A stretch of DNA of 24,000 nt from an uncultured Pirellulales bacterium (GTDB lineage Bacteria > Planctomycetota > Phycisphaerae > Sedimentisphaerales > Anaerobacaceae). The position numbers and the translations under genes were made by a program. Where the stretch lies: NCBI GenBank assembly GCA_964462945.1, contig CAYWZW010000001.1, positions 123,570 through 147,569 on the forward strand. Reading direction: 5' to 3'. Shown piece by piece: positions 6,617-24,000 of this stretch (the first letter of the stretch is position 1; every line of letters starts with the position of its first letter). The notes under the pieces were generated by a model. The model searched no databases and was not told where the DNA came from. It was given only the letters and a program-made list of their open reading frames with translations.

Positions 6617-6700
6617 CGATTGCCGATCGCCGATTGTGGATTTGCGATTTGAGTCAAGCCAATCGGCATTCGCAAATCAGCAACTGACAATCGCAAATCG
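6617..6700. repeat. dyad-symmetric heptamer array (12 units, 84 nt) filling the lysM-ftsL gap
   Basis: CGATTGC CGATCGC CGATTGT GGATTTG CGATTTG AGTCAAG CCAATCG GCATTCG CAAATCA GCAACTG ACAATCG CAAATCG. The left arm is CGATTnn and the right arm is nnAATCG. It lies between the stop at 6611-6613 and the ATG at 6704. Confidence 0.85.
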
Positions 6701-6703
6701 AAA

Positions 6704-6937
6704 ATGCAAATGTCCCAATTCCGTTTTGTTTTTGTTGTTTTTTGTTTTACGGCGGTCCTGATCCTGGCCGTTTATCTGCGGAGTGCCAACAACCGGGTTT
6801 TCTACGAGCTTTGCTCGTACAACGTCGAACAAGGGCGATTGAAACAGCAGTTGGGCGCCAAGCAGCTGTTGCTCGAAAGTCTAATAAATCCCGCCTCCGT
6901 GTCACAGCATCTGGACAAGTTGAAAACCGGCGACTGA
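6704..6937 (+). CDS. ftsL: FtsL-like cell-division protein (single TM plus short coiled coil)
   Basis: 77 aa. TM (FVFVVFCFTAVLILAVYL) followed by a helical Q/L-rich segment. It occupies the canonical ftsL slot directly before ftsI. The call rests on topology and synteny only. Confidence 0.5.
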   Translation: MQMSQFRFVFVVFCFTAVLILAVYLRSANNRVFYELCSYNVEQGRLKQQLGAKQLLLESLINPASVSQHLDKLKTGD

Positions 6938-9809: not shown

Positions 9810-10565
9810 TCAGTCCGGCTTCCACCGCAAGCGGTCCAAGCCTTGTGTCTTGACGAATTCCACGTGGGAATCGACAAAGAGGACGTGGCAGCCGTCGGCT
9901 TGGTGGCTGTCGGTGGTCAGGATTTCGGGGCCACCCGCCTGGTTCCAGCCGGGATGCGTCTCGAAGAGCAGCACCATATCAGGCGGGGCGGAGGTCCCAA
10001 GCTCCAACACGTTCTTGTTCATTGCGTAATTGCAGGGGCCTTCCATCGCGCCCCGGCAACTGAACGTCATGCGGTCCACCCCGGCGTGCTCGATAAGCAG
10101 ATCGCACCATTTTGAGCTTGTCGGAAACTTGTCATCGTAATCGTTGGCGTAGATCAGCATGGCCTTGCCGAGGCCGGACATATTCGTGCCGCACGTCATT
10201 CTTTGGGCAAGGTGTTTTGTCCTGACAAGGGCCGGCATCGTAATGCCCAACATCAGCGGCAATATGAACACCCCTGCAACGACCGGCACAACAATCCCCG
10301 TGACGGCAAAACCGTTGCCCCTCAATCTGCCGCCGCTGTTGGCGATCTTCACCAGCCCCACAATCCCTAAGATGATGGCCGGCAGCGCCGTGATGAACAA
10401 GGTGCATAAGCTAAGGATTCCGAGCACGAATGAAGCAATCGCCAGCCCGCTGGTCTTGGCAACCGCGGGGGGCGCTGTTGCAGAAATACTCGGCAGCAGC
10501 CAATTGCACGCGCTACACACCTGGGCGTTATCCGGATTTTCTTTGCCGCATCTTGGACAGTACAT
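9810..10565 (-). CDS. zinc-ribbon / DUF4190 membrane / pseudopilin-like (DUF1559, H-X9-DG-like) protein
   Basis: MYCPRCGKEN..CSACNW (CxxC...CxxC). DUF4190-like helices (LAIASFVLGILSLC...ILGIVGLVKIANSGGRLRGNGFAVTGIVV). A pilin-like core (AQRMTCGTNMSGLGKAMLIYANDYDDKFP). C-terminus HQADGCHVLFVDSHVEFV. AAGGAG lies 7 nt before the ATG. Confidence 0.8.
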   Translation of the reverse strand: MYCPRCGKENPDNAQVCSACNWLLPSISATAPPAVAKTSGLAIASFVLGILSLCTLFITALPAIILGIVGLVKIANSGGRLRGNGFAVTGIVVPVVAGVFILPLMLGITMPALVRTKHLAQRMTCGTNMSGLGKAMLIYANDYDDKFPTSSKWCDLLIEHAGVDRMTFSCRGAMEGPCNYAMNKNVLELGTSAPPDMVLLFETHPGWNQAGGPEILTTDSHQADGCHVLFVDSHVEFVKTQGLDRLRWKPD

Positions 10566-10705: not shown

Positions 10706-11827
10706 TTATTCTCTGCCAGGCCCAGGAGGTTCCATTACTGAGCGGCTACCCTGGCCGTCGTGTACAAGCAATGAATCCGTCCTGTCCTTTGGCTCACTCC
10801 CGATTTGCGGCGGATGGCCATATCGTATGTCTCCGCCGTCCCAGAAGGTGTAGAGATTGTCACCGTTGATACCACAAAACGAGTGTTTTTCAAACTGCAC
10901 GTGGTTGTCCACGAACAAGACATTCTGTCCATCTTCCTGGTGTTGGATTGCGTTGCCGGCCTTGACTGCTCTTCTACCACCGTCCACGCGAAAACCGCCA
11001 GGAAAGTCTTTAGCCTTTGCAGATGGGGAGTCCATCCAGGGATTCCTGTCAGCCGCCGCTGCCAGACTGGGTTCGCTCGACGTGGTCAGGCGATAGAAGC
11101 TAAAAGGTATGTGATACGAGTAGCTGCAATGCTTTTGTGGCTCGGGGCCGAAATCCCAAAAATCAATCAATTCTCGACCACCCATGCCCTCGTCGGTGGG
11201 ATTAAACGCCGTCACCCCAGTATCACCCCAGCAGACGAACGACTTGGGGCTCTCTTTGGCATACTTGACCAGGAGGTAGAAACAGGATGAGATGCTACCC
11301 TGACCTCCGCTGCCGTCCGCGGCCAGGCCGTATGCGACGGACCGATCGTTGGCCTTCCAGTCAGGTATCTGCATGGCCCACGGGCTTTCCTTGCCGCCGG
11401 AACGAGGCAATTGCCCGTCATAATCATTGGCGTAGGTGAGCATCGCCATTCCGATAACGGACAGGTTCGTGGCGCAGGCCAATCGAAACGCTACCTGCCT
11501 CATTCTTAACATCGCCGGCACCACGATCCCACATGATAGAACGATTGGCAACACGACCCCGAGAACGGCGAAGTTTCTTCCGGTCAGTCTGCCACCGCTC
11601 TTTTCTATGAGGATGAAGCTGATAATACCCAAGACTATGGCGGGTACGGCTGTCAGGCCGCAGGTGAAAAGACTCAGGATACCGAGCACGAATGCAGCGT
11701 TGGCCAACCGGCTTGTTCTTGGCACAATATCTCCGGAAGGCATGGGAGCTTCTAACAACTGAGCACCGCAGGATCGGCATACCTGGGCATCAGCGGGGTT
11801 TTCTGTTCCGCATTTTGGACAGTACAT
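10706..11827 (-). CDS. zinc-ribbon / DUF4190 membrane / pseudopilin-like (DUF1559, H-X9-DG-like) protein, longer paralog
   Basis: Same architecture as 9810-10565: MYCPKCGTEN..CRSCGA, AAFVLGILSLFTCG...ILGIISFILIEKSGGRLTGRNFAVLGVVL, FRLACATNLSVIGMAMLTYANDYDGQLP, and HQEDGQNVLFVDNHVQF. GGGAG lies 6-7 nt before the ATG at 11827; the ORF-track TTG at 11848 is less likely. Confidence 0.8.
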   Translation of the reverse strand: MYCPKCGTENPADAQVCRSCGAQLLEAPMPSGDIVPRTSRLANAAFVLGILSLFTCGLTAVPAIVLGIISFILIEKSGGRLTGRNFAVLGVVLPIVLSCGIVVPAMLRMRQVAFRLACATNLSVIGMAMLTYANDYDGQLPRSGGKESPWAMQIPDWKANDRSVAYGLAADGSGGQGSISSCFYLLVKYAKESPKSFVCWGDTGVTAFNPTDEGMGGRELIDFWDFGPEPQKHCSYSYHIPFSFYRLTTSSEPSLAAAADRNPWMDSPSAKAKDFPGGFRVDGGRRAVKAGNAIQHQEDGQNVLFVDNHVQFEKHSFCGINGDNLYTFWDGGDIRYGHPPQIGSEPKDRTDSLLVHDGQGSRSVMEPPGPGRE

Positions 11828-11890
11828 GATATTCTCCCATCGATTCAAAAATCCCGCAAGTCACAGAAAACTCGCGAGCCATCGCGCTTT

Positions 11891-12102: not shown

Positions 12103-14325
12103 TCATTGCGACCGAAGTGAGGTATTCTCCATGACGGGTTTGCCGATGTATCCGGCTTCGATGCAGAACTGGATGATGTCCCGGGCCAAGGGTGCGGCGT
12201 CGCTCGAGCCGTGCTGGCCGCCTTCGACGATGACGGCGATGGCAATCTTTTGGGCGGCGCTATCCTGGGCAAAGCCGGCGAACCAAGCGTGCTCCGGCCG
12301 TTCCGTCGAGCCGGTCTTGCCATAGACTTTCACATCCTCGGCGGCGAGGGTCCGCAGGAAAGGTTCAAACTGGGTGTAAGCCGTGCCGCCCACGTCGTTC
12401 ACTACGGCGCTCATTCCGTCGTAGATGACGGCCAACGTCTCTAAGCGGACGCCCAAATCGATTGCCGATTGCCGATTGCCGGCTGCCGATTGAAGATCGA
12501 AAATCCGTGGCGCAATATAGACGCCTTCTCGCGCGAGGGCCGCCATAGCATTTGCAACCTGCAGTGGCGTGACACGCAGACTGCCCTGGCCGATACCGAA
12601 CATTCGCCTCTCGCCTGGTCGCAGCGGCGGCAGGTCCGCGAAGCTTCGGATGGCCCCTCGCGGAATCGTGCTGGAGATCGTCCCGGACAACTGGTCGAAA
12701 TTCCTGTCCAGCCCACTTAAATTTGAAATTTGAAACTTGAAACTTGAAACTTCCTTGAGAAAGTCGGGCACAAACAAGATGTCCCGCCCATAGCCGAACT
12801 TAAAGAGCCATTGCTGCAAAGCGTTCGGATCGACCCTATCGGCCAAGCGGGAGAAATAAATGTTACAACTGCCCTTGATGGCATTGCGAGCGTTATTTTC
12901 CCACCGATTGTCATGACCCACTCTTGCTCTTCTAAATATCAAGCACTTCGGCCATCCTTCAGGGGGCGCTTCAGGCGGACAACTAATGATTTCTTCCGGG
13001 GTTATATGACCGCTTTCGAGCCCGGCGATGAGAATCAAGGGTTTAACAACCGAGCCGGGCGGATACTCCTCGTTGATCGCCCGGTTAATCAGCGGCTTGC
13101 GCGGGTCGGCCACCAGATCGCCGTAGTCGTAGCGCACGCGGTTCAAATCATAGACGGGCAGTGAAACCAGAGCGAGTATGTCAGACGTCCCGACCTCGAT
13201 TATAACGGCCGACATTCCGGGACCGCAATTCGGATCATGGGGATAGCGAGTCAGGTAGTCTTCTATTCTTTTCTGCAACTCGATGTCCAGCGTCAGCTTA
13301 ACATCGTCGCCGAGCTGAGCTGGGATTTGGTTGACGAGCTGCCGGTCCAAATCTTTGACCTCTTCGCCTCGTCTGCCGCGAAGGACGCCCTCGCAGACGT
13401 ACTCGACGCCGTCCTCTCGTCCGCAAAGCTCGCCCTCCAGATAGCTTAGCAATTCATCGTCCTCGAGAAGCTCTTTATCCCGCTGCTGCGTCGCCGGTCC
13501 GACCCAGCCTATGGTCTGGGCGGCCACCGTGCCGTACGGATAGAACCGGTGCTCCTGCGGCAGAATCGCAACGCCGTCGGTGTCCAGAAATTCCAATTGG
13601 GCGGCAAAGATATCGTCGTCGGTTTGCAGCTCCAGCAGGGGCCAGTTCCTGTGCATTTCCGCAATATCGACTTTGCTCGCAAGCTCACGCCGTTTGACCA
13701 GGTCGGGCTCTTTGGCCTCGAAATCAGCTATGGCCACGGAAAGCGGGACGCCGTTCCTGCTCGCGTAATGGCCAAACACTTCTGAATTCGGGAAGTTTCT
13801 TCGCCACGCTTGAAACGTCCGGCTGTCCCACACCAGATCGTTGACCTTTTGTATTTCGCCTCTGATTTGCGAGGGATCCACTGCTCCCAGCCGGGCACAC
13901 TTGTTGATGATCTGCTCCAAATCTTCGAGCTTGGCGCTGATTTCTTCTTTGGTCTTCGCTATGGTCTTGTCCGGATCGGCTTGGCCGGCGGCCCTGTCAA
14001 GAAGGTTTTGCCGGACCCGTTCATCCAAATATGAGCACAGTCTGTAATTGATATGCACGGAGAACCGGGCTTCATCGATCGCCAGCACTCTGCCGTTTCT
14101 GTCAAGTATTTTGCCGCGAATGGTCTTGAGCTGTTTGGATTGGCCCCTTTGACGCTTGAGTTCGGCGATTTTCTCCTGGACGGATGAGGCGGTCAGTAAT
14201 TGCATCTGTGCCAGGCGGAGCAAACACAGCCCCAGAAGCAAAACGCCGAACATCACAAGAATTTTGACTCGCTTGCTGTACATAATCAGCGCCCACGAAA
14301 GTGGCTTATTCTTATGCCCATCCAC
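12103..14325 (-). CDS. mrdA: penicillin-binding protein 2 (elongasome D,D-transpeptidase MrdA)
   Basis: 740 aa. N-terminal TM and class B PBP motifs SxxK (GSVVKP), SxN (GSCNIY) and KTG (GKTGST). It follows mreBCD. GTG at 14325 overlaps the mreD 3' end; the ATG at 14283 (2 nt after the mreD stop) is an equally plausible start. Confidence 0.85.
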   Translation of the reverse strand: MDGHKNKPLSWALIMYSKRVKILVMFGVLLLGLCLLRLAQMQLLTASSVQEKIAELKRQRGQSKQLKTIRGKILDRNGRVLAIDEARFSVHINYRLCSYLDERVRQNLLDRAAGQADPDKTIAKTKEEISAKLEDLEQIINKCARLGAVDPSQIRGEIQKVNDLVWDSRTFQAWRRNFPNSEVFGHYASRNGVPLSVAIADFEAKEPDLVKRRELASKVDIAEMHRNWPLLELQTDDDIFAAQLEFLDTDGVAILPQEHRFYPYGTVAAQTIGWVGPATQQRDKELLEDDELLSYLEGELCGREDGVEYVCEGVLRGRRGEEVKDLDRQLVNQIPAQLGDDVKLTLDIELQKRIEDYLTRYPHDPNCGPGMSAVIIEVGTSDILALVSLPVYDLNRVRYDYGDLVADPRKPLINRAINEEYPPGSVVKPLILIAGLESGHITPEEIISCPPEAPPEGWPKCLIFRRARVGHDNRWENNARNAIKGSCNIYFSRLADRVDPNALQQWLFKFGYGRDILFVPDFLKEVSSFKFQISNLSGLDRNFDQLSGTISSTIPRGAIRSFADLPPLRPGERRMFGIGQGSLRVTPLQVANAMAALAREGVYIAPRIFDLQSAAGNRQSAIDLGVRLETLAVIYDGMSAVVNDVGGTAYTQFEPFLRTLAAEDVKVYGKTGSTERPEHAWFAGFAQDSAAQKIAIAVIVEGGQHGSSDAAPLARDIIQFCIEAGYIGKPVMENTSLRSQ
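12454..12507. repeat. heptamer array translated in frame inside mrdA
   Basis: CAAATCG then CGATTGC x3 (12459-12479), CGGCTGC, CGATTGA, AGATCGA, AAATCCG. It is read on the minus strand as PRIFDLQSAAGNRQSAIDLG. Confidence 0.8.
12718..12752. repeat. heptamer array (5 units) translated in frame inside mrdA
   Basis: TAAATTT GAAATTT GAAACTT GAAACTT GAAACTT. It is read on the minus strand as EVSSFKFQISNL. Confidence 0.8.
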
Positions 14326-17025: not shown

Positions 17026-17907
17026 TCACAAATTAGTGTTGACCTGGTCGTTGACTCTCGGCTGATGTTCGGGCGCATCGGCAAGCAGCTCAAGCCAGCC
17101 GACCGCCTTTTCGGGTTCGACGTCCAAAATCACAACGTCGCAAACGAACTTGTCGCTGCGGGTGGCATGGAATCGCATCCCTTCCTTGACGCCGTCCGCC
17201 TCACCAATGGATATTTCGGCCAGAAGGTTCTTCATGTCCACCACGGTGATCAACCCCTTCAAGTCGATGTTTTGGGTGGGAGGCGCCACGCGAGCGTCCT
17301 CTTTCATCGCCGTGACCGCAACGGCCGGAGCAACAACCTTACCATACTCCCGCAGAATCCCGTCGAGCTTATTCTGAAGTTCGGTCTTTTCTTCGAGCAG
17401 ACGTTTCGATTTGTCCTCCAGCACGCTTATAATCGCCATTTTCTCCAGAAGAGCGGTTGAGGTCTGTTCGTGTTCGGCTCGTTCCTTGATCAGCTCAGCC
17501 GTGGTTTTCTGCTGCTCGGCGATGGCACTGTTTCTTAACTGGTCGTTTGTTTCGATAGTCTTGGAGAAATCCTTTACCACCGCTTCCCAGCCGTCTGCTT
17601 TTCGTTGAGCATCGTCTCTGGCTATTTCAGCCTGCTTGAGTTTCGCCTCCAGACTCCCAATCTCCTGCTGGAGTGCGCCAACCTTCTCGCCAAGTGCCAG
17701 CTTTTCCTCATCCGTCTTGCTTTTCAACTCGTTAAACTGCTTGTTGGCGTTGTTTTCACTCTGCTTGGCAGCCTGAAACCCGCTGTAAAGCCCGTCGTAT
17801 TTCTCTTTGTAGTCAACAGCGCTGGCGACGTATGTTACCACAATACCGCAGAGAAAAATTGAGGCGATTGTAAGCAGGACTATTAGGACCTTTGTGAGAG
17901 TACTCAA
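17026..17907 (-). CDS. N-terminally membrane-anchored coiled-coil protein with a small C-terminal beta-rich domain
   Basis: 293 aa. TM (VLIVLLTIASIFLCGIVVTYVASA), about 170 aa of heptad-rich K/E/Q/A sequence, then LITVVDMKNLLAEISIGEADGVKEGMRFHATR..VCDVVILDVEPEKAVGWL. TTG start with AGGAGG 5 nt upstream. No family recognised. Confidence 0.7.
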   Translation of the reverse strand: MSTLTKVLIVLLTIASIFLCGIVVTYVASAVDYKEKYDGLYSGFQAAKQSENNANKQFNELKSKTDEEKLALGEKVGALQQEIGSLEAKLKQAEIARDDAQRKADGWEAVVKDFSKTIETNDQLRNSAIAEQQKTTAELIKERAEHEQTSTALLEKMAIISVLEDKSKRLLEEKTELQNKLDGILREYGKVVAPAVAVTAMKEDARVAPPTQNIDLKGLITVVDMKNLLAEISIGEADGVKEGMRFHATRSDKFVCDVVILDVEPEKAVGWLELLADAPEHQPRVNDQVNTNL

Positions 17908-18213: not shown

Positions 18214-19233
18214 CTATCTCATATCGCACTGAAAAACGGCCTTGGCAGCCGCAATACGGACGTATTTCGACTCGTTTTTCAAAAGCGGGGGCAAATATTT
18301 TGTAAGGGCAGGTGTCCGAATCTGACCGATCGCCAGCGCCGCAAGCACATTGACCCGTTCGCTGGCCTGTTTGTCAGGGCCGGCGGCGAGGTTCTTTTCA
18401 AAGACCTCGAGCACTTCCGGCTCACCGGTCTTGTCTCCAAGCTTGCCGAGCTGTTCCGCCGCAGCCAGCCGAACCTCCAGTACAGCGTCATCCAACTTGG
18501 TGACCAGGATATCTCTGGCTCGCGGCGTGCCCAGTGCTCCTATTGCCCGTATGCCCAGAATCCTGTCGTCGGCGTAAGCGCTATAAACAACGGCCCATAG
18601 TCTCTGAAGGACTTCCTCATCCCCGAGCCGGGCCCTGGCCTCCAGCACCTGGAACCGGACCTTATCGCCCGAGTATTTGTCGTCCTGTACCGATTTCAGC
18701 ACGTTCAGCAATCGCCGGTCTCCGATTTTCCCGAGCAGGAAGACGGCATTGGCTCTGACCGTCTCGTCCTTGCTTTCCGCTGCTTCACGGACAACCTTGT
18801 AATACTCAGCAGCACCAAGCCTGCCCATTGCATAAGAGGCGGCGACAATGACGTTCGAATCCTCATCTTTCAGCAATGGGCCCAGCGCCCTCTGTGCGGG
18901 AGAGTACTGCAGGTCACCGACGGCCAAAGCCGCCGCAAATCGAACCGGCGAGAATTGATCCTGGACCAGCCGCTGCACCTTCGGCATCAAATCGACGCGC
19001 CCGGTGGTGCCCACCACTTCGATGGCGTTCACCCGGGCCACCGGATCACTATCAGCCAGGGCCTCCTCAATAACGTGCTTGGCCTCGCCGTAGGCGGAGG
19101 CGACGTTCGTGACGTAGAAATCTCCTAACATGGATTGCGAAGAATCCTCGCATCCGAACAGGAGCGTTGCCAGGAGAGCCGGGATCAGGATGCGATAAAT
19201 ACAAGCAAGTGTATTTCTGTGCTTGTTCTTCAT
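18214..19233 (-). CDS. HEAT-repeat lipoprotein
   Basis: MKNKHRNTLACIYRILIPALLATLLFGC is a signal peptide with a lipobox-like LFGC. At least seven HEAT-like units follow (DPVARVNAIEVVG, SPVRFAAALAVG, DETVRANAVFLLG, VLEVRLAAAEQLG, SKYVRIAAAKAV...). The ATG at 19233 overlaps the lnt TGA as ATGA. Confidence 0.75.
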   Translation of the reverse strand: MKNKHRNTLACIYRILIPALLATLLFGCEDSSQSMLGDFYVTNVASAYGEAKHVIEEALADSDPVARVNAIEVVGTTGRVDLMPKVQRLVQDQFSPVRFAAALAVGDLQYSPAQRALGPLLKDEDSNVIVAASYAMGRLGAAEYYKVVREAAESKDETVRANAVFLLGKIGDRRLLNVLKSVQDDKYSGDKVRFQVLEARARLGDEEVLQRLWAVVYSAYADDRILGIRAIGALGTPRARDILVTKLDDAVLEVRLAAAEQLGKLGDKTGEPEVLEVFEKNLAAGPDKQASERVNVLAALAIGQIRTPALTKYLPPLLKNESKYVRIAAAKAVFQCDMR

Positions 19234-21071
19234 TTGACCACCTTGCCAAACGAGTTCTTCCCCTTCCGGCGATGGAAAAACCTCACCGAAAGCGGCACTA
19301 TTATGAGCAGAATAACACACAGCTCACAACAAAAATCCAGCCATTCGCCGTATTTGCTGAAAAAAGTCGCTCTCTTGTCGATAGGCACCTTGTCCATGAG
19401 CCACCCGGCCATACCCGTTCGTGCCATCGCCTCTTGCGGCAAGGTTCCGCCCACGTACCCGTCTCGAACGCGCCCGAGGCTGTCGATCACACAGCTTATG
19501 CCGGTATTCACGCTTCGCAGCACGGCAAGCCTGTTCTCCACGGCCCTGAAAGCGCAGACCGCGGCGTGCTGAGGAAGCTCCTCGCTGGGCAAGACTTGTT
19601 CATCTTTGAACCGGACAAACCAGCCGTCGTTGCTTATGTTCACAAGCCAGTCGAGCCTCTTTTGCCCATGCTCGTCCAGGGCAAATCGCCGGGCAATCGC
19701 CGGGACGGTGTCCTCATAACAAATCATGACGCCGAATCTGTGAACTCGATTATTTTCTGCCACCAAGACACCAAGACCCGAAGAATCATTTTGTTTCTTA
19801 TCTATATCTAATTGGCTTTGTGACTTCGTGACTTCGTGGCTAATCTCCTCATATTCGCGCCCGGCCATTTCAAACACCGTGTATTCGCTGCCGTAGTCGA
19901 GCGAGTAATCGAAATTGTAGGGAATGAACTTGACCTTCATCAAAAGCTCATAAAACCACGCCAAGGGCCTGCGTAACGGCAGCACCTCCCCGAAGGGCAC
20001 CAGGTGAATCTTGTCGTACCGCTTTGCGTCCCGCTGTCCATCGGGCCGGTAGAGAAACGCCGAGTTGTATCTGGCCAGATAGCGGTCTGCGCCGTTTTGT
20101 TGAATCTCGGCGCCGTAGGCGCCCACAAGCACATACGCATTTCCTTGTGCGTGCTCTCCAAGGGCCTTGTCAAAAACTTCATGCTCCTGGGGAGAAACCA
20201 GGAATCGCCATACCGCCGCATCCAAATAAGCCTGCACCATGGTCTCGGGCCAGACAATCAGCTCGGCTCCGGCCGCGACGGCGGCCTTGCTGTGCTCCAT
20301 CAATCCGTTGAACAAATTGTCGCCCGACTCAAACGTCCTCTTCACCGACTGAGGGACGTTCGACTGCAGCGACGCAACCAACGGGCCGGCCTCGACGCAA
20401 TCACCCTCCTGACCGATCCGCCAGCGCCCATAGACGACGGCGGCGACCACCGCGGAACCGACAACGGCAAATGACAATAATGAATATCGAATGTCGAATG
20501 TCAAACGACGAACCTGACGAGCCGCCAAGATCAACTCAGCTAACAGGCCGTTGACCATCGCGATCAGAAACGAGACCCCGCCGGCCCCGAATAGGTCGGC
20601 GATCTGGATGAGCGTGATGTTTTGATATTGGCTGTGCGCCAGGAACCGCCAGAAGAAGCCGCCCAAGAATAAGCCCTGCATCCGTTCGACGCCGACGATT
20701 AACACAGCCGAGGCCAGAAACAACGGAATTTTCTTTATCCGGCAATAACGCAGGCAAAGGGCCAGGATGGGCCACAGCAAAGCGGTGTACAGGCAAAAGA
20801 CCAGCCAGCCGACAATCGTCACCGGAGCGACCCAGTAGAGATTACCCAGCCAGTAGAATAGCGAAACAACATAGCTCACAAAAAACAGACGCCGCGGCTT
20901 CGCTTCGGGTGAGCTGGCCAGAATAAAGGGCACGAACGACACCCACGCTAACGGCGCCCAGCCTATCGGCGCCTGGATCACCGTCAGCATCACCGCACTG
21001 ACCACCAGGAAGATTTTCGATTTTCGATCGGCAATCGGCATTCGGCAATCGGCATTCGGCGAGATCTTCAT
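19230..21071 (-). CDS. lnt: apolipoprotein N-acyltransferase Lnt
   Basis: Polytopic N-terminal half plus a CN-hydrolase domain with the E-K-C triad context (LIVWPE; YDKIHLVPFGE; VMICYED). At 613 aa it is longer than typical Lnt, owing to repeat-derived segments. The ATG overlaps the methyltransferase TGA as ATGA, and GAGGA lies 7 nt upstream. Confidence 0.85.
   Translation of the reverse strand: MKISPNADCRMPIADRKSKIFLVVSAVMLTVIQAPIGWAPLAWVSFVPFILASSPEAKPRRLFFVSYVVSLFYWLGNLYWVAPVTIVGWLVFCLYTALLWPILALCLRYCRIKKIPLFLASAVLIVGVERMQGLFLGGFFWRFLAHSQYQNITLIQIADLFGAGGVSFLIAMVNGLLAELILAARQVRRLTFDIRYSLLSFAVVGSAVVAAVVYGRWRIGQEGDCVEAGPLVASLQSNVPQSVKRTFESGDNLFNGLMEHSKAAVAAGAELIVWPETMVQAYLDAAVWRFLVSPQEHEVFDKALGEHAQGNAYVLVGAYGAEIQQNGADRYLARYNSAFLYRPDGQRDAKRYDKIHLVPFGEVLPLRRPLAWFYELLMKVKFIPYNFDYSLDYGSEYTVFEMAGREYEEISHEVTKSQSQLDIDKKQNDSSGLGVLVAENNRVHRFGVMICYEDTVPAIARRFALDEHGQKRLDWLVNISNDGWFVRFKDEQVLPSEELPQHAAVCAFRAVENRLAVLRSVNTGISCVIDSLGRVRDGYVGGTLPQEAMARTGMAGWLMDKVPIDKRATFFSKYGEWLDFCCELCVILLIIVPLSVRFFHRRKGKNSFGKVVK
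19761..19838. repeat. AT-rich palindromic insert with 8-nt tandem arms, in frame in lnt (78 nt = 26 codons)
   Basis: Left arm CACCAAGA x2 (19761-19776). Right arm GTGACTTC x2 plus GTG (19820-19838). The reverse complement of the right arm matches the left arm at 13 of 17 positions. The centre is AT-rich. Confidence 0.6.
20482..20516. repeat. heptamer array (GAATATC type) translated in frame in lnt
   Basis: GAATATC GAATGTC GAATGTC, then degenerate AAACGAC GAACCTG. It is read on the minus strand as RRLTFDIRYSLL. Confidence 0.6.
21012..21060. repeat. heptamer array (7 units) encoding the first ~20 residues of Lnt
   Basis: GATTTTC GATTTTC GATCGGC AATCGGC ATTCGGC AATCGGC ATTCGGC. It is read on the minus strand as MKISPNADCRMPIADRKSKIF. 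Confidence 0.85.
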
Positions 21072-22060
21072 TCTAAATCCTCTAAAGCCGTCGCCATTTC
21101 TTTTGTGCTATAGTGCTTGCGGTTGCTCATCCGCACCGTAAATTGACTGGTAAAAAGCCTTAAGAGATTTCTGTCGGCGGCGATTTCTCGCGGTGGTATT
21201 TGCATGTCACGTGAGAGCCGTTTGACCTCATCCAGCTCCGCTTTCGATTTGCGATTTGCGATTTGCGATTTGCGATTTTCAATCGGCAATCGGCAGTCGG
21301 CAATCGGCAGTCGCCAATCGGCCTTCAATCGGGCCAGACGTCTGTCTGAATTCTCGACGTACGTCTGCGATATTTCGACGCCGACATAGTTTCGGCCCAG
21401 TTGATACGCTGCTGCTGCGGTGGTCCCGGAGCCGCTAAAGGGATCCAGCACGCAGTCTCCCGGATTAGAGCTTGCCGCGATGATCCTCTTGAGCAGGCCC
21501 TCCGGCATCTGACAGGGATGCCAGCCGGCACGTTCCTTAAACGTCCCACAGACCCGCGAGTATCCGTCCCACACGTCATCCGGCATTTTTCCCGCGGGGT
21601 TGGCGCGTCTGTCGTTATAGATAAGCTGTCGGTCCGAAGGCACGCGCACGGCCCGGTCATTGAACGTGAAGTGCTTATGGTCATGGGCGAAGTAAAAGAT
21701 GTGCGTGTGCGCTCGTGCGAATTTGTTTTTCGTCTGCTGGCCGAAGGTGTAGTGCCATATTATCCAGTTCCGCATGAAAAGGCCCAGCTCGTCGGCTATG
21801 ATTTTGACATGGGCGGCGTAGTCATCGCCGATGGCTATGTAGAATGAGCCGTGCGGCTTCAAGACCTTCTTGCAGACGGCCATCCACTCTCTCGTCCAGG
21901 CAACGTATTTGTCGGTGGTGACTTCATCGTGGTACTTGTCGTATTTGTAGCCGATATTGAACGGCGGATCGGCAAAGATCAGGTCCGCAAAAGGCTCCCT
22001 GACCTCGCCCAGCACCTCGATACAATCGCCGCATATAATCCTGTTGAGAAGCTCTTGCAT
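21068..22060 (-). CDS. orphan beta-class DNA methyltransferase (N6_N4_Mtase family, DPPF motif, probably N6-adenine)
   Basis: Motif IV (IFADPPFN) precedes motif I (LDPFSGSGTT), which is beta-class order. HPCQMPEGLLKRII is also present. No restriction endonuclease is adjacent. The C-terminal part is a repeat-encoded linker plus a tail of about 57 aa. Confidence 0.85.
   Translation of the reverse strand: MQELLNRIICGDCIEVLGEVREPFADLIFADPPFNIGYKYDKYHDEVTTDKYVAWTREWMAVCKKVLKPHGSFYIAIGDDYAAHVKIIADELGLFMRNWIIWHYTFGQQTKNKFARAHTHIFYFAHDHKHFTFNDRAVRVPSDRQLIYNDRRANPAGKMPDDVWDGYSRVCGTFKERAGWHPCQMPEGLLKRIIAASSNPGDCVLDPFSGSGTTAAAAYQLGRNYVGVEISQTYVENSDRRLARLKADWRLPIADCRLPIENRKSQIANRKSKAELDEVKRLSRDMQIPPREIAADRNLLRLFTSQFTVRMSNRKHYSTKEMATALEDLE
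21245..21332. repeat. dyad-symmetric heptamer array translated in frame in the methyltransferase gene
   Basis: CGATTTG x4, CGATTTT, then CAATCGG CAATCGG CAGTCGG CAATCGG CAGTCGC CAATCGG (11 in-phase units, 21245-21321), plus an extra CAATCGG at 21326-21332. It is read as ADWRLPIADCRLPIENRKSQIANRKSK. Confidence 0.9.
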
Positions 22061-22066
22061 GGCGCT

Positions 22067-22094
22067 ATATTAAGAGCTCGCCGCAACTTTGCAA
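22067..22094 (-). promoter_or_regulatory. promoter candidate abutting the methyltransferase ATG, possibly giving a leaderless mRNA
   Basis: The minus strand reads TTGCAA (22094-22089), 16-nt spacer, TAATAT (22072-22067). The ATG at 22060 lies 7 nt after the -10, and there is no SD upstream. Confidence 0.3.
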
Positions 22095-22226
22095 GGGAGA
22101 ATTGATTTCACTGGCGCCACCCCGAATAAAGCGCCACCCGGCTAACAATCTCATCTCTTGTGGGACAAGTCCTTCGGTGCTGCCTGAGAACAGATAGGCA
22201 TACGGCCCTCCGGTCCGTGAGAAACC

Positions 22227-22931
22227 CTACTGACTCTGGCGAGGCTTGATGGCTTTTTGTTCGTTGAAGACCCGGCCGGTGAGGTAATCGGTGAAGGTGA
22301 CCTTGACCGTCAAGGGCCCATCTCCCGATGCGTCGGGGTCGATTTTTGCGGCGACGTCGAACGTCAATCTGTAGTTGATGGTCAGCACGGTGTCAAACCA
22401 GAGCTTTCTAAGCTCACCCGAAGTCACGTGCCACTGGCCGAGCAGGGCGCCGTCTTGCGTCTTGTTCAGGTCCCAGAGCTGGACGTCCACGTCGCCGGCG
22501 GCCTTTATTTTATCGCCCTCCTCGTCCATCGGCTGGATATAGACAATCAGCTTTTCCTTCTTGCCGTCATTGTCCTTGTCGTAGAAGCCCGTGTATCTGC
22601 CGATCTTGACGCTCGTAAGACGCCGGAGGTTTTCGAGCTTGACCTGCTCGGGCAGGCCGGAGAGGACCTGCACCTGCTCTTTGAGCTGCTTGTTTTCGGC
22701 CTGGGACTGGTCGATTTGCTCCTGCTGTTGGGTCTTTTCCTGCGTCAACTGCTCAATTTGTGCAGCCAGCGCGTCTTTTTCCTGCGTGTTCTGGCAGCCC
22801 GCAAGGGACAGAACACAGAACACAAAAGGCAGGACTAAGAATATCGAATATCGAATAACGAATTTCCAAGTCAGAAGTTCTTGAATCAGCGTTCGATATT
22901 CGATATTGGACATTCGATATTGGACATTCAT
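22227..22931 (-). CDS. lipoprotein with coiled-coil segment and C-terminal beta-rich domain
   Basis: Perfect lipobox LSLAGC. A Q/E-rich coiled coil ([32 protein letters not shown]) is followed by a globular domain. The ATG at 22931 overlaps the clpP TGA as ATGA. The long pre-lipobox N-terminus is repeat-encoded. The only other ATG start (M7) has no SD. Confidence 0.65.
22839..22929. repeat. dyad-symmetric heptamer array (13 units, 91 nt; GAATATC / GATATTC arms)
   Basis: GAATATC GAATATC GAATAAC GAATTTC CAAGTCA GAAGTTC TTGAATC AGCGTTC GATATTC GATATTG GACATTC GATATTG GACATTC. The arms are mutual reverse complements. It covers codons 1-31 of the lipoprotein. Confidence 0.85.
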
Positions 22932-23581
22932 TGTCGTTCTTGCTCCGGCTGCTCGGGCTGCTCCGGCCGGCGGACGATTTCGGGGGCTTTTTGCAGGACC
23001 CTGTCGGCCAGTCCGTATTCAATCGCCTCGGCGGCGTCCAGCCAGAGGTTCCGGTCGCAGTCCTTTTCGACTTTCTCGGCCGCCTGGCCGGTGTGCTTGG
23101 CCACGATGTCATAGAGCCGGGCTCGCAGCCGCAATATTTCCTGGGCCTCGATGTCCAGGTCGGTCGCCGGCCCGATCAACTGCCCGGAGATGAGCGGCTG
23201 GTGCAGGAGAATTCTGTTGTTGGCCAGGAGGAACCGCTTGCCGGGCTTGCCGCCGGCCAGTAAGACGGCGGCCATGCTGGCCGCCTGCCCGACGCAGTAG
23301 GTCGCCACGTCGCATCGCAGAAACTGCATCGTATCGTAGATCGCCAGCCCCGCCGTGATCGAGCCGCCCGGGGAATGGATGTAGAATTGAATATCGGTCT
23401 TTGAGTCTTCATTGCTCAGGAAAAGCATCTGGGCGATGATCAGGTTGGCGGTGACATCGTCGATCGGCCCGCCGAGAAAGACGATTCTGTCTTTGAGCAG
23501 TCTCGAATAGATGTCGTAGGCCCGCTCGGTTCGACCGCTTTTCTCAATAACTATCGGCACCAAATTCTGATTCAAGCTCAT
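22928..23581 (-). CDS. clpP: ATP-dependent Clp protease proteolytic subunit ClpP (second copy)
   Basis: Catalytic contexts [11 protein letters not shown] (Ser), LLHQPL (His) and [13 protein letters not shown] (Asp). AGGAG lies 7 nt before the ATG. The C-terminal tail is [14 protein letters not shown]. Confidence 0.9.
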
Positions 23582-23601
23582 TTGCTACTCCTGTGTGAGA
23601 A

Positions 23602-23685
23602 GATTTTCGATCTGCGAATGCCGATTTTCGATTTGCGATCGGCAATCGGCAAGCGGCAATCGGCAAGCGGCAATCGGCAATCGCC
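23602..23685. repeat. dyad-symmetric heptamer array (12 units, 84 nt) filling the clpP-clpP gap
   Basis: GATTTTC GATCTGC GAATGCC GATTTTC GATTTGC GATCGGC AATCGGC AAGCGGC AATCGGC AAGCGGC AATCGGC AATCGCC. A further GCAATCG lies at 23691-23697. Confidence 0.9.
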
Positions 23686-23699
23686 CCTTGGCAATCGCG

Positions 23700-24000
23700 T
23701 TACTTCTTTTCGTCCTTTTTCTCTTTATCTTTTTCTGCACGTTTTTCTTTGTCTTCTTCCTGCAGCACCTCGTCGATCAGGCCGTATTCGTGCGCCTCCT
23801 GGGCCGTCATGTATCTGTCTCTCTCGGTCTCAGCGATGATTCTCTCGACCGGCTGGCCCGTGTGTTTGGCGAGAATTTCATTGATCATTTTCTTGGCTTT
23901 GAGGATCTCTTCGGCCTGGATTTTGATATCGGCCGCCTGGCCGCTCACTCCGCCCCAGGGCTGGTGAAGCATCACTTTGGCGTGCGAAAGGGCGTGTCGT
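23700..24000 (-). CDS. clpP: ClpP proteolytic subunit (first copy), 5'-truncated by the window end
   Basis: The frame is open to position 24000. ...[34 protein letters not shown]...[22 protein letters not shown] is the ClpP C-terminal half (His and Asp contexts). It ends in the K/E-rich tail [19 protein letters not shown]. Confidence 0.85.

Follow-up and report, generated by a model that had tools for sequence, protein, structure and literature searches.

Heptanucleotide tandem arrays with an ordered dyad layout in core genes of an uncultured Sedimentisphaerales planctomycete

Tandem arrays of 7-nt units were analysed in 24 kb of DNA (24,000 nucleotides, referred to as the window) from an uncultured planctomycete of the order Sedimentisphaerales (GenBank assembly GCA_964462945.1, contig CAYWZW010000001.1, positions 123,570 to 147,569 of the forward strand). 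The arrays, built of units such as GCCGATT (AATCGGC on the opposite strand) and GCAAATC, are members of the known class of short tandemly repeated repetitive (STRR) sequences and long simple sequence repeats (SSRs) and not a transposon; since heptanucleotide long SSRs form an established class, they are not a new kind of element. What goes beyond the searchable literature is an undescribed family of units (termed AATCG-type here), an ordered dyad layout, in-frame residence in essential genes, and the retention of array sites while the units at these sites turn over. On balance, we regard it as probable that the arrays are driven by slippage, with occasional templated copying to new permissive sites and a filter imposed by translation, and for most copies no function is needed as explanation.

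Period-7 arrays and their location in genes

The whole window was scanned by a sliding comparison of each base with the base p positions further on (s[i]=s[i+p], p from 2 to 15, cut-off at least 24 matches in 28). High-scoring sliding windows numbered 46 at p=7 and 31 at its harmonic p=14, and none was found at any other p from 2 to 15. Period 7 is a real local period, and Tandem Repeats Finder (TRF) placed the arrays at the coordinates given in the original prediction, with period-7 tract starts at 6724, 12459, 12715, 20482, 21012, 21027, 21245, 21280, 22808, 22839, 22892, 23602 and 23638 and a top score of 78. The arrays are long SSRs by definition, that is, head-to-tail repeats of a unit of 1-11 nt that are longer than expected by chance, and many dispersed tandem heptanucleotide loci occur in one genome, as in STRR sequences. 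Ten period-7 tracts lie in the 24-kb window, and the adjoining 8.4 kb of contig L001 adds two. The arrays had been described as strictly 7-nt periodic; the period holds but not the strictness, as units carry point variants and 6617-6700 has a non-repeat central unit. The proposed family of at least five loci comprises five AATCG-type copies, beside which two further period-7 tracts are found at 6724-6748 and 22808-22824.

Only arrays A and D of the list below are intergenic; all other tracts lie within long open reading frames (ORFs) and keep the frame. Most arrays are thus inside ORFs of essential genes and are very probably translated, judging from the reading frames, a location that the original prediction overlooked. 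The host genes of the in-frame tracts are those of PBP2, Lnt, a DNA methyltransferase, a lipoprotein and an FtsL-like ORF, and seven of the ten tracts are in ORFs for which orthologues are conserved or Pfam domains flank the tract. The in-gene arrays are in frame and stop-free on the gene strand, and the main window units are stop-free in all six frames with the exception of AAGTTTC, which is open only on the coding strand. The encoded peptides are of low complexity with a period of seven residues (e.g. LPIADCR, NRKSQIA). A protein-level lag-7 screen of 120 PBP2 homologues was uninformative, the arrays being too short for two peptide periods. Four of the ten tracts are located at most about 25 nt from a start codon at operon-internal junctions. 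The tracts are, with coordinates and strand:

6617..6707 (+), array A: AATCG-type dyad in the LysM/FtsL-like spacer, running into the ATG at 6704/6710; order (CGATTGC)-type units, CGATTTG units, centre AGTCAAGC, CAATCGG/CAAATCG units
6724..6748 (+): TTTTGTT x3.3, found by TRF; codes for the hydrophobic/transmembrane FRFVFVVFCF of the FtsL-like ORF
12454..12510 (+), array E: inside the PBP2 ORF in reversed orientation, (GCCGATT)n followed by GAAGATC GAAAATC on the + strand; codes for FDLQSAAGNRQSAIDLG in a hypervariable transpeptidase loop
12713..12757 (-): direct (AAGTTTC/AAATTTC)n in a second hypervariable loop of the PBP2 transpeptidase domain; codes for KEVSSFKFQISNLSG; no dyad partner
20480..20521 (-): direct (GACATTC/GATATTC)n in Lnt; codes for part of the loop QVRRLTFDIRYS between two hydrophobic segments, which we take, from the E. 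coli Lnt, to be the fifth and sixth transmembrane helices
21009..21063 (-), array B: N-terminal tail of Lnt, residues 5-20, PNADCRMPIADRKSKI; order (GCCGAAT GCCGATT)x2, GCCGATC, (GAAAATC)x2, TTC
21235..21332 (-), array C: DNA methyltransferase ORF, linker after the catalytic domain; codes for ADWRLPIADCRLPIENRKSQIANRKSKA; order (GCCGATT/GCCGACT)x6, GAAAATC, (GCAAATC)x4
22808..22824 (-): remnant (GTTCTGT)n in the hydrophobic region of the lipoprotein signal peptide; codes for part of VFCVLS
22839..22931 (-): second-type dyad in the N-terminal extension of the lipoprotein, from its ATG, which overlaps the clpP2 stop; order (AATATCG/AATGTCC)n, 27-nt centre, (GATATTC)n; fold z = -3.7 and -3.1
23599..23690 (-), array D: 12-unit composite in the clpP1-clpP2 spacer; order (GCCGATT/GCCGCTT)x6, GCCGATC, GCAAATC, GAAAATC, GGCATTC, GCAGATC, GAAAATC, then TTCTCACACAGGAGTAGCAA and ATG

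Shared layout of the AATCG-type copies

Four of the five AATCG-type copies, when written in transcript register, consist of (GCCGATT)4-6, often a transitional GCCGATC, and (G[CA]A[AG]ATC)2-5 in an unbroken 7-nt register, and the PBP2 copy (array E) has the same unit order on the opposite strand. The polarity reported earlier is therewith confirmed, the GCCGATT arm leading in the transcript at four of the five loci and 12454-12510 being reversed. The sequences reported as shared were recovered as well, namely the 13-mer GAAGATTTTCGAT at 21009 and 23599 and the 16-mer ATTTTCGATTTGCGAT at 23624 with its reverse complement at 6690. Arrays B and D have the common end ATCGAAAATCTTC, and the family extends beyond the window within the same genome, where a CGATTTN...NAAATCG pair ending AATCGAAAATCTC is found just outside at L001:528-706. 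The two 84-nt copies (6617-6700 and 23602-23685) have 12 units each in one continuous 7-nt register. Both had been called purely intercistronic, which is correct for 23602-23685 in its spacer; array 6617-6707 reaches the start codon of the FtsL-like ORF and is therefore not purely intercistronic.

Beyond the unit there is no consensus: copies have a length of 8 to 12 units, and private variants recur with period 14, with GCCGAAT in array B, GCCGACT in array C and GCCGCTT in array D (ATTCGGC, AGTCGGC and AAGCGGC on the other strand). From the shared ordered layout together with the own variant of each copy, the AATCG-type copies appear to have a common composite origin and to have changed locally since, and one ordered layout in five copies suggests copying within the genome.

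The 5-bp helices separated by 2x2 internal loops that had been proposed correspond to the predicted fold of 21240-21335 (+). Fold z-scores of the window arrays are modest (-0.2 to -3.7), and those of the AATCG-type arrays are weak and without strand preference. A second unit type had been said to follow the same dyad logic, which applies to 22839-22929 but not to the direct arrays 20482-20516 and 12718-12752, for which neither a fold signal (z = +0.6) nor a dyad partner was found.

Retained sites and changed units in relatives

For comparison, 80 syntenic loci with 62-85% identity were obtained from an Lnt search of metagenome contigs. These relatives contain 70 period-7 arrays, compared with 0-6 at the other periods tested (5-13) and 36 at the harmonic 14, so that the arrays are not confined to the window; they occur in related loci and in other genomes. 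The units of the relatives differ from those of the window (e.g. AAGACAG, AAGTCAG, AGCATCG, GACGAGG), while the arrays occupy the same gene-relative positions. On the gene strand 65 of the 70 units are stop-free (69-74% expected), and the 42 of 70 that are stop-free on both strands represent no enrichment. The window arrays sit at linkers, tails and loops that are hypervariable across the 80 orthologous loci, among them both PBP2 sites, which are hypervariable loops in the orthologue alignment.

At the Lnt loop harbouring 20480-20521, the basal length is about eight residues and many lineages have heptamer-encoded inserts such as LDxRxSxLDxR; period-7 arrays with other units were found there in 14 of the 80 relatives (12 distinct sequences). 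Relatives have long (TTCTGTC)n arrays at the lipoprotein signal-peptide site of the remnant 22808-22824. The PBP2 AATCGGC array (12454-12510) has an orthologous array in L135 and is absent from L133. At the methyltransferase linker, the 82-nt array of the window stands in place of 34 nt of L131, L133 and L141, and other lineages have other inserts at the same spot; array C is a lineage-specific gain. At the Lnt N-terminus, array B stands in place of about 88 nt of unrelated sequence of L131 and L133. An (AAAATCG)n array occupies this position in L137 and another loop of Lnt in L135 and L140; these Lnt arrays of L135, L137 and L140 all end ATCGAAAATCTTC, as do window copies B and D. A target-site duplication was found neither at the methyltransferase linker nor at the Lnt N-terminus in comparison with L131 and L133, and the arrays are no clean insertions with terminal inverted repeats and target-site duplication of the kind that defines a miniature inverted-repeat transposable element (MITE). 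The spread of the arrays had been left without explanation in the original prediction; spread as a mobile element is not supported, since duplications were not found and the arrays replace a similar length of the relatives' unrelated sequence.

Some relatives have an unrelated element inserted at the loops that have heptamer arrays elsewhere: in the Lnt loop of L133, L154, L174, L179, L185, L186 and L195, at the methyltransferase linker of L161 and L163, and in the PBP2 loop of L205. It is translated in frame as ...HPERSEGS...FASLRMT or HSERSEESL... and looks like another small dispersed palindromic repeat.

Dyads at the clpP junctions

Tandem-unit dyads of unrelated sequences are present at the clpP2-lipoprotein junction in each of the close relatives inspected, with the units GACGAGG/TCGTCCA in L131, CAAATAT/CATTTTG in L133, GATTAGA/TCTAATC in L135 and 8-9-nt units of the CTAAAGTG type in L140; other relatives have heptamer dyads such as GTCAGAA/TTCTGTC. 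The median fold z at this junction, calculated over 28 loci, is -1.8 for the sense and -1.1 for the antisense strand, with sense-strand z <= -2 in 13 of the 28. A difference of more than 3 kcal/mol favours the sense strand in 16 loci and the antisense strand in 2. The dyad does not interrupt the lipoprotein frame in 24 of the 28 loci, nor in 13 of the 14 where the gap is at least 59 nt.

In the clpP1-clpP2 spacer a hairpin-forming tandem-unit dyad was found in five of seven lineages; after it, the window, L135 and L140 share a Shine-Dalgarno region with a conserved CACAGGAG. The clpP-junction dyads are the best hint of a function, though a statistical and modest one. No match to Rfam at gathering thresholds was obtained in the window, and a terminator scan of 19000-24000 gave nine terminator-like hits, none of them at an array. 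In L135 and L140 the dyads of the clpP1-clpP2 spacer and the clpP2-lipoprotein junction consist of 8-9-nt units (CTAAAGTG / CACTTTAG) and not of heptamers, and the junction dyads are therefore not strictly bound to period 7.

Stability of the arrays in the population

The locus is 99-100% identical, with identical arrays, in a 26.5-kb JGI contig and in Logan assemblies from several sequencing runs, so that an assembly artefact is refuted by independent assemblies. Array A is identical in ten population contigs and array D in nine of ten, sample L008 being without 14 nt at 23667-23680; the loss is a whole-unit length change, i.e. a polymorphism of the slippage type, and a single event. This sole length variant is intergenic. 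The coding arrays are invariant in all population contigs, with none of the frequent frame-switching changes of unit number known from neuO, and across about 20 contig observations the arrays are otherwise identical.

Short-read contigs end at arrays in several cases (L003 and L006 at 21249, L004 at 21284, L356-L359 and L361 near 6753), and it is likely that contigs in metagenome-assembled genomes (MAGs) of these lineages often break because of heptamer arrays. Outside any array, one population (L002, JGI 3300048782) has a 7-nt deletion at 21840-21846, and the resulting frameshift splits the DNA methyltransferase gene in two, with ORFs of 72 and 270 aa. L001 shows an in-frame deletion polymorphism of 27 nt (17424-17450) in a 293-aa ORF (17026-17907) that is coiled-coil-like and has no Pfam match.

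The AATCGGC unit in other phyla

A search of a species-genome collection with the pattern GGCAATCGGCANNCGGCAATCG, for which about 1 match is expected by chance, gave at least 120 loci. Those listed belong to Acidobacteriota (many Pyrinomonadaceae), Verrucomicrobiota, Planctomycetota, Chloroflexota, Cyanobacteria, Bacteroidota, Proteobacteria and others, some of them represented by long-read assemblies, including MAGs; no close relative of the window is among the 120 matches listed. A peptide search with NRQSAIG x6, which otherwise returned mostly tiny spurious ORFs, found the unit in cultured isolates. The following counts refer to the matches listed. Most other arrays in these loci have a unit that is one mutation away from AATCGGC. 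For 18 of 107 arrays an inverted CGATT-type partner is present at a distance of up to 150 nt (1.6% by chance), and 83% of the AATCGGC arrays are plain direct arrays without an inverted arm. In 33 of the 120 loci an array was located 70 or more codons deep inside a long ORF, and bona fide domains were found in nine of ten array-bearing ORFs tested, with the array typically at a domain boundary; these ORFs encode PheT, ValS, an IleS/ValS-type synthetase, MetG, DnaG, AddB, an ABC ATPase, a PSCyt protein and a TPR protein. For 34 of 107 arrays, an ORF start is reached within 40 nt on the AATCGGC strand; on the opposite strand this is the case for 13 of 107. By a crude ORF test, the start-proximal fraction is 32%, compared with 25% at random positions.

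In viral contigs, perfect three-unit arrays numbered 13 for GGCAATC, 2, 0 and 7 for three permuted controls, 3 for GGGAATC and 107 for TAACTGA. The GGCAATC/AATCGGC unit is somewhat favoured and not exceptional; as the preference is only modest, neither horizontal transfer nor a special status of AATCGGC is claimed, and independent origin suffices for its spread across phyla. A contig that bears the label of a Klebsiella pneumoniae MAG (L061, CALQJI020000032.1) is probably mis-binned; the PSCyt1, PSCyt2 and PSD1 domains that it encodes are of planctomycete type.

Comparison with known repeat systems

STRR1-3 have the units CCCCAGT, TTGGTCA and CAACAGT and are hosted by heterocystous cyanobacteria, whereas the present units are GCCGATT, GCAAATC, GAATATC etc. 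in a Sedimentisphaerales host. STRR heptamers are nevertheless the right analogy, as proposed earlier: like these and other long SSRs, the arrays consist of tandem 7-nt units at many dispersed loci, with genome-specific favoured units, unexplained function and a proposed slippage origin. They differ in belonging to Planctomycetota, in their units, in being mostly in frame within ORFs and in their ordered two-arm layout. As quoted in two later papers, heptanucleotide repeats are the most abundant long SSRs in most prokaryotic genomes, polymerase slippage was proposed as their origin, and a coding location is likeliest for units with a length that is a multiple of three (Mrazek et al. 2007, via PMC4679880, PMC4692102). 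Heptanucleotide repeats have been known since 1990, and in 2015 no detailed literature on them was stated to exist (PMC4692102). Literature searches with all rotations of the AATCGGC unit gave chance matches in eukaryotic papers only and, among the searchable papers, none in a bacterial context, and a search for heptamer repeats in bacteria of the Planctomycetes-Verrucomicrobia-Chlamydiae (PVC) group and in Acidobacteria gave nothing specific.

The GGGAATC repeat of Xanthomonas is one base from the GGCAATC found here, and it forms heterogeneous arrays, some as inverted pairs, which are kept at orthologous intergenic sites with variation in length and sequence (PMC4692102). Heterogeneous arrays, inverted pairs and sites retained between species are thus common to both. 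With regard to the question whether the family matches a described one, the class, including the inverted pairs of Xanthomonas, is known and the AATCG unit family is undescribed. In contrast to the present units, which have no G-tracts, GGGAATC and the Nostoc repeat GGGGA(C/T)T are G-rich, mainly intergenic, and were studied as G-quadruplex formers (PMC4692102). The TAACTGA heptamer of marine Beggiatoaceae, Cyanobacteria and Bacteroidetes often ends a few nt before a start codon; its forward orientation has stops in all three frames and it is therefore almost entirely intergenic, with a few reverse-orientation copies translated at protein termini and one indirect repeat reported (PMC4679880). 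It resembles the present arrays as a heptamer family common to distant phyla with start-codon-proximal placement and some translated copies. The arrays described here differ in having main units that are stop-free in all six frames and in residing in interior loops of essential proteins.

Ogata and co-workers reportedly described, in 2000, Rickettsia palindromic elements (RPEs) that lie in frame at tolerant sites of conserved protein genes. RPEs have a fixed length of about 100-150 bp and a consensus sequence, show no 7-nt periodicity and are confined to Rickettsia. The analogy, drawn in the original prediction, is fair for the in-frame copies, which occur here in PBP2, Lnt and the methyltransferase and in other phyla in PheT, ValS, MetG, DnaG and AddB; it does not extend to a fixed-length consensus, as unit numbers vary here and variants are private. 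Repetitive extragenic palindromic (REP) sequences are linked to RAYT transposases. According to PMC3733652, REPs are species-specific, hairpin-forming, extragenic palindromes of 20-40 bp with a GTAG or CGTC tag. Within this description, REPs and bacterial interspersed mosaic elements (BIMEs) are like arrays A and D in position, as intergenic hairpin-forming repeats within operons, but seven of the ten tracts here are inside ORFs, the array ends have no GTAG/CGTC tag and the window has no transposase. Finally, the neuO AAGACTC array, with 3 to 53 repeats among strains, is translated only if the repeat number is divisible by 3 (PMC13001214). It is comparable in that a heptanucleotide array within the 5' part of a coding region is translated as long as it is in frame, whereas neuO is a single hypervariable prophage contingency locus (PMC13001214) and the arrays here are population-stable and in core genes.

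Origin of the arrays and alternative explanations

In the explanation that we hold for probable, slippage in replication would let arrays grow, shrink and become homogenised, and existing arrays would serve as the source of new copies, either by template switching or by copying in the manner of gene conversion. Templated copying would explain the shared ordered layout of (GCCGATT)n, GCCGATC and (G[CA]AAATC)n, sometimes ending ATCGAAAATCTTC, and also the replacement of resident sequence without target duplications. Translation would then filter the surviving units and sites, leaving peptides of low complexity with a 7-residue period, and the arrays are found only at sites that tolerate extra sequence, namely operon spacers, N-terminal tails, inter-domain linkers and length-variable surface or cytoplasmic loops. 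The inverted arrangement would produce imperfect hairpins, of which those at the two clpP junctions may be co-opted to tune expression. Several points weigh against this explanation. Slippage alone does not account for a mature array of two arms and 12 units at a site without any array in the closest relative, nor does it explain that each genome fills its sites with its own unit family. The dyads at clpP1-clpP2 and clpP2-lipoprotein persist through complete sequence turnover, which, together with the sense-strand bias of 16 to 2, hints at selection on RNA structure rather than neutrality. Moreover, about 32 kb of the genome was seen and genome-wide behaviour is extrapolated from it, and the translation of the arrays is read from reading frames.

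As an alternative that we consider unlikely, the arrays would be functional cis-acting elements that act on mRNA stability, on processing or on translational coupling and so determine how strongly neighbouring cistrons are expressed relative to each other. It would agree with the start-proximal placement of four of the ten tracts at operon-internal junctions, with dyads kept without sequence conservation at clpP1-clpP2 (five of seven lineages) and clpP2-lipoprotein (z <= -2 in 13 of 28), with the more stable sense strand, with the excess of AATCGGC strands entering ORF starts in other phyla (34 to 13 among 107 matches listed) and with the similar position of TAACTGA repeats just upstream of start codons (PMC4679880). 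However, a regulatory role is not obvious for the majority of copies, which are in coding regions, the AATCG-type folds are weak and without strand preference, neither an Rfam match in the window nor a terminator-like feature at any array was found, the start-proximal fraction of 32% among the matches listed is barely above the random 25% of the crude test, and filtering for permissive sites predicts enrichment at gene ends without any function. Somewhat less likely still is a non-autonomous REP/BIME- or MITE-like element built of heptamer units, with a hairpin recognised by a transposase encoded elsewhere and inserted also inside genes. The ordered two-arm layout, the end ATCGAAAATCTTC shared also by different sites in L135, L137 and L140, the full 82-nt methyltransferase array where the closest relatives have none, and the REP-family-like use of a lineage's own units at shared sites would suit such an element, but resident sequence is replaced and not interrupted, target-site duplications and terminal inverted repeats beyond the dyad were not found, copies vary from 8 to 12 units with private variants, the window encodes no transposase, 83% of the AATCGGC arrays among the matches listed in other phyla are plain direct arrays, and REPs are extragenic by definition. 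Phase variation at neuO-like contingency loci, with frame switching by gain or loss of units, is very improbable: the 5' coding arrays of Lnt and the lipoprotein resemble the AAGACTC array of neuO (PMC13001214), but the hosts are core housekeeping genes (PBP2 and Lnt here, tRNA synthetases and primase elsewhere), the arrays are short and interrupted by variant units, and the coding arrays are identical in all population contigs where neuO has 3 to 53 repeats (PMC13001214); invariant coding arrays and core-gene hosts effectively exclude it. An assembly or sequencing artefact might be suspected from the short-read contigs that break in or beside arrays (L003, L006, L004 and several near 6753), yet assemblies made independently (JGI, Logan) from different samples agree exactly in the arrays, the AATCGGC unit occurs in long-read MAGs and cultured isolates, and the reading frames of essential genes are intact through the arrays, which leaves this explanation next to no probability.

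A further, speculative thought, to which we attach little likelihood, is that the dyads form a self-propagating, transposase-free copy-and-paste class that colonises junctions and linkers, sets cistron expression through its hairpins and continually supplies essential proteins with new peptide loops. If true, this class would colonise Sedimentisphaerales, with its AATCGGC unit across many phyla, and the clpP1-clpP2 and clpP2-lipoprotein copies would have been retained through sequence turnover because of their hairpins. The locus with its 80 orthologues offers a concrete handle on the origin of heptanucleotide repeats, as different species have different units at the same sites, gains can be dated against close relatives, and the arrays add loops to essential proteins. 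If the pattern were genome-wide, 7-nt slippage arrays would be a regular source of insertions in conserved proteins and would explain odd low-complexity segments, spurious small ORFs and contig breaks in MAGs.

Gene content of the window and further observations

The window encodes MraZ, RsmH, a LysM protein, the FtsL-like ORF, FtsI, a glycosyltransferase, two zinc-ribbon/DUF4190/DUF1559-like proteins, PBP2, MreD, MreC, MreB, a HEAT protein, Lnt, an N6/N4 DNA methyltransferase, a lipoprotein and two ClpP paralogues. In agreement with the original prediction, no transposase, integrase or reverse transcriptase was found among the domains of the window ORFs. The nearest named PBP2 homologues (65-75% identity) are from MAGs of Sedimentisphaerales (Planctomycetota, class Phycisphaerae). 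The idea that the neighbouring DNA methyltransferase targets the arrays at GANTC- or GATC-type sites was dropped after inspection by eye, because the units have no GANTC and GATC is present only in single variant units.

Stop/start overlaps of the form ATGA at 21068-21071 (methyltransferase/Lnt) and 22928-22931 (clpP2/lipoprotein) suggest translational coupling straight into array-encoded N-termini. Beside the heptamer dyad of the latter junction, an ordinary in-frame repeat of 9 nt (TGCTCCGGC x3, 22941-22967) codes for the PEQPEQPEQ tail of ClpP2. Adjacent paralogous ORFs at 9810-10565 and 10706-11848 have an N-terminal zinc ribbon and DUF4190, and the first of them also has a weak DUF1559-like C-terminus.

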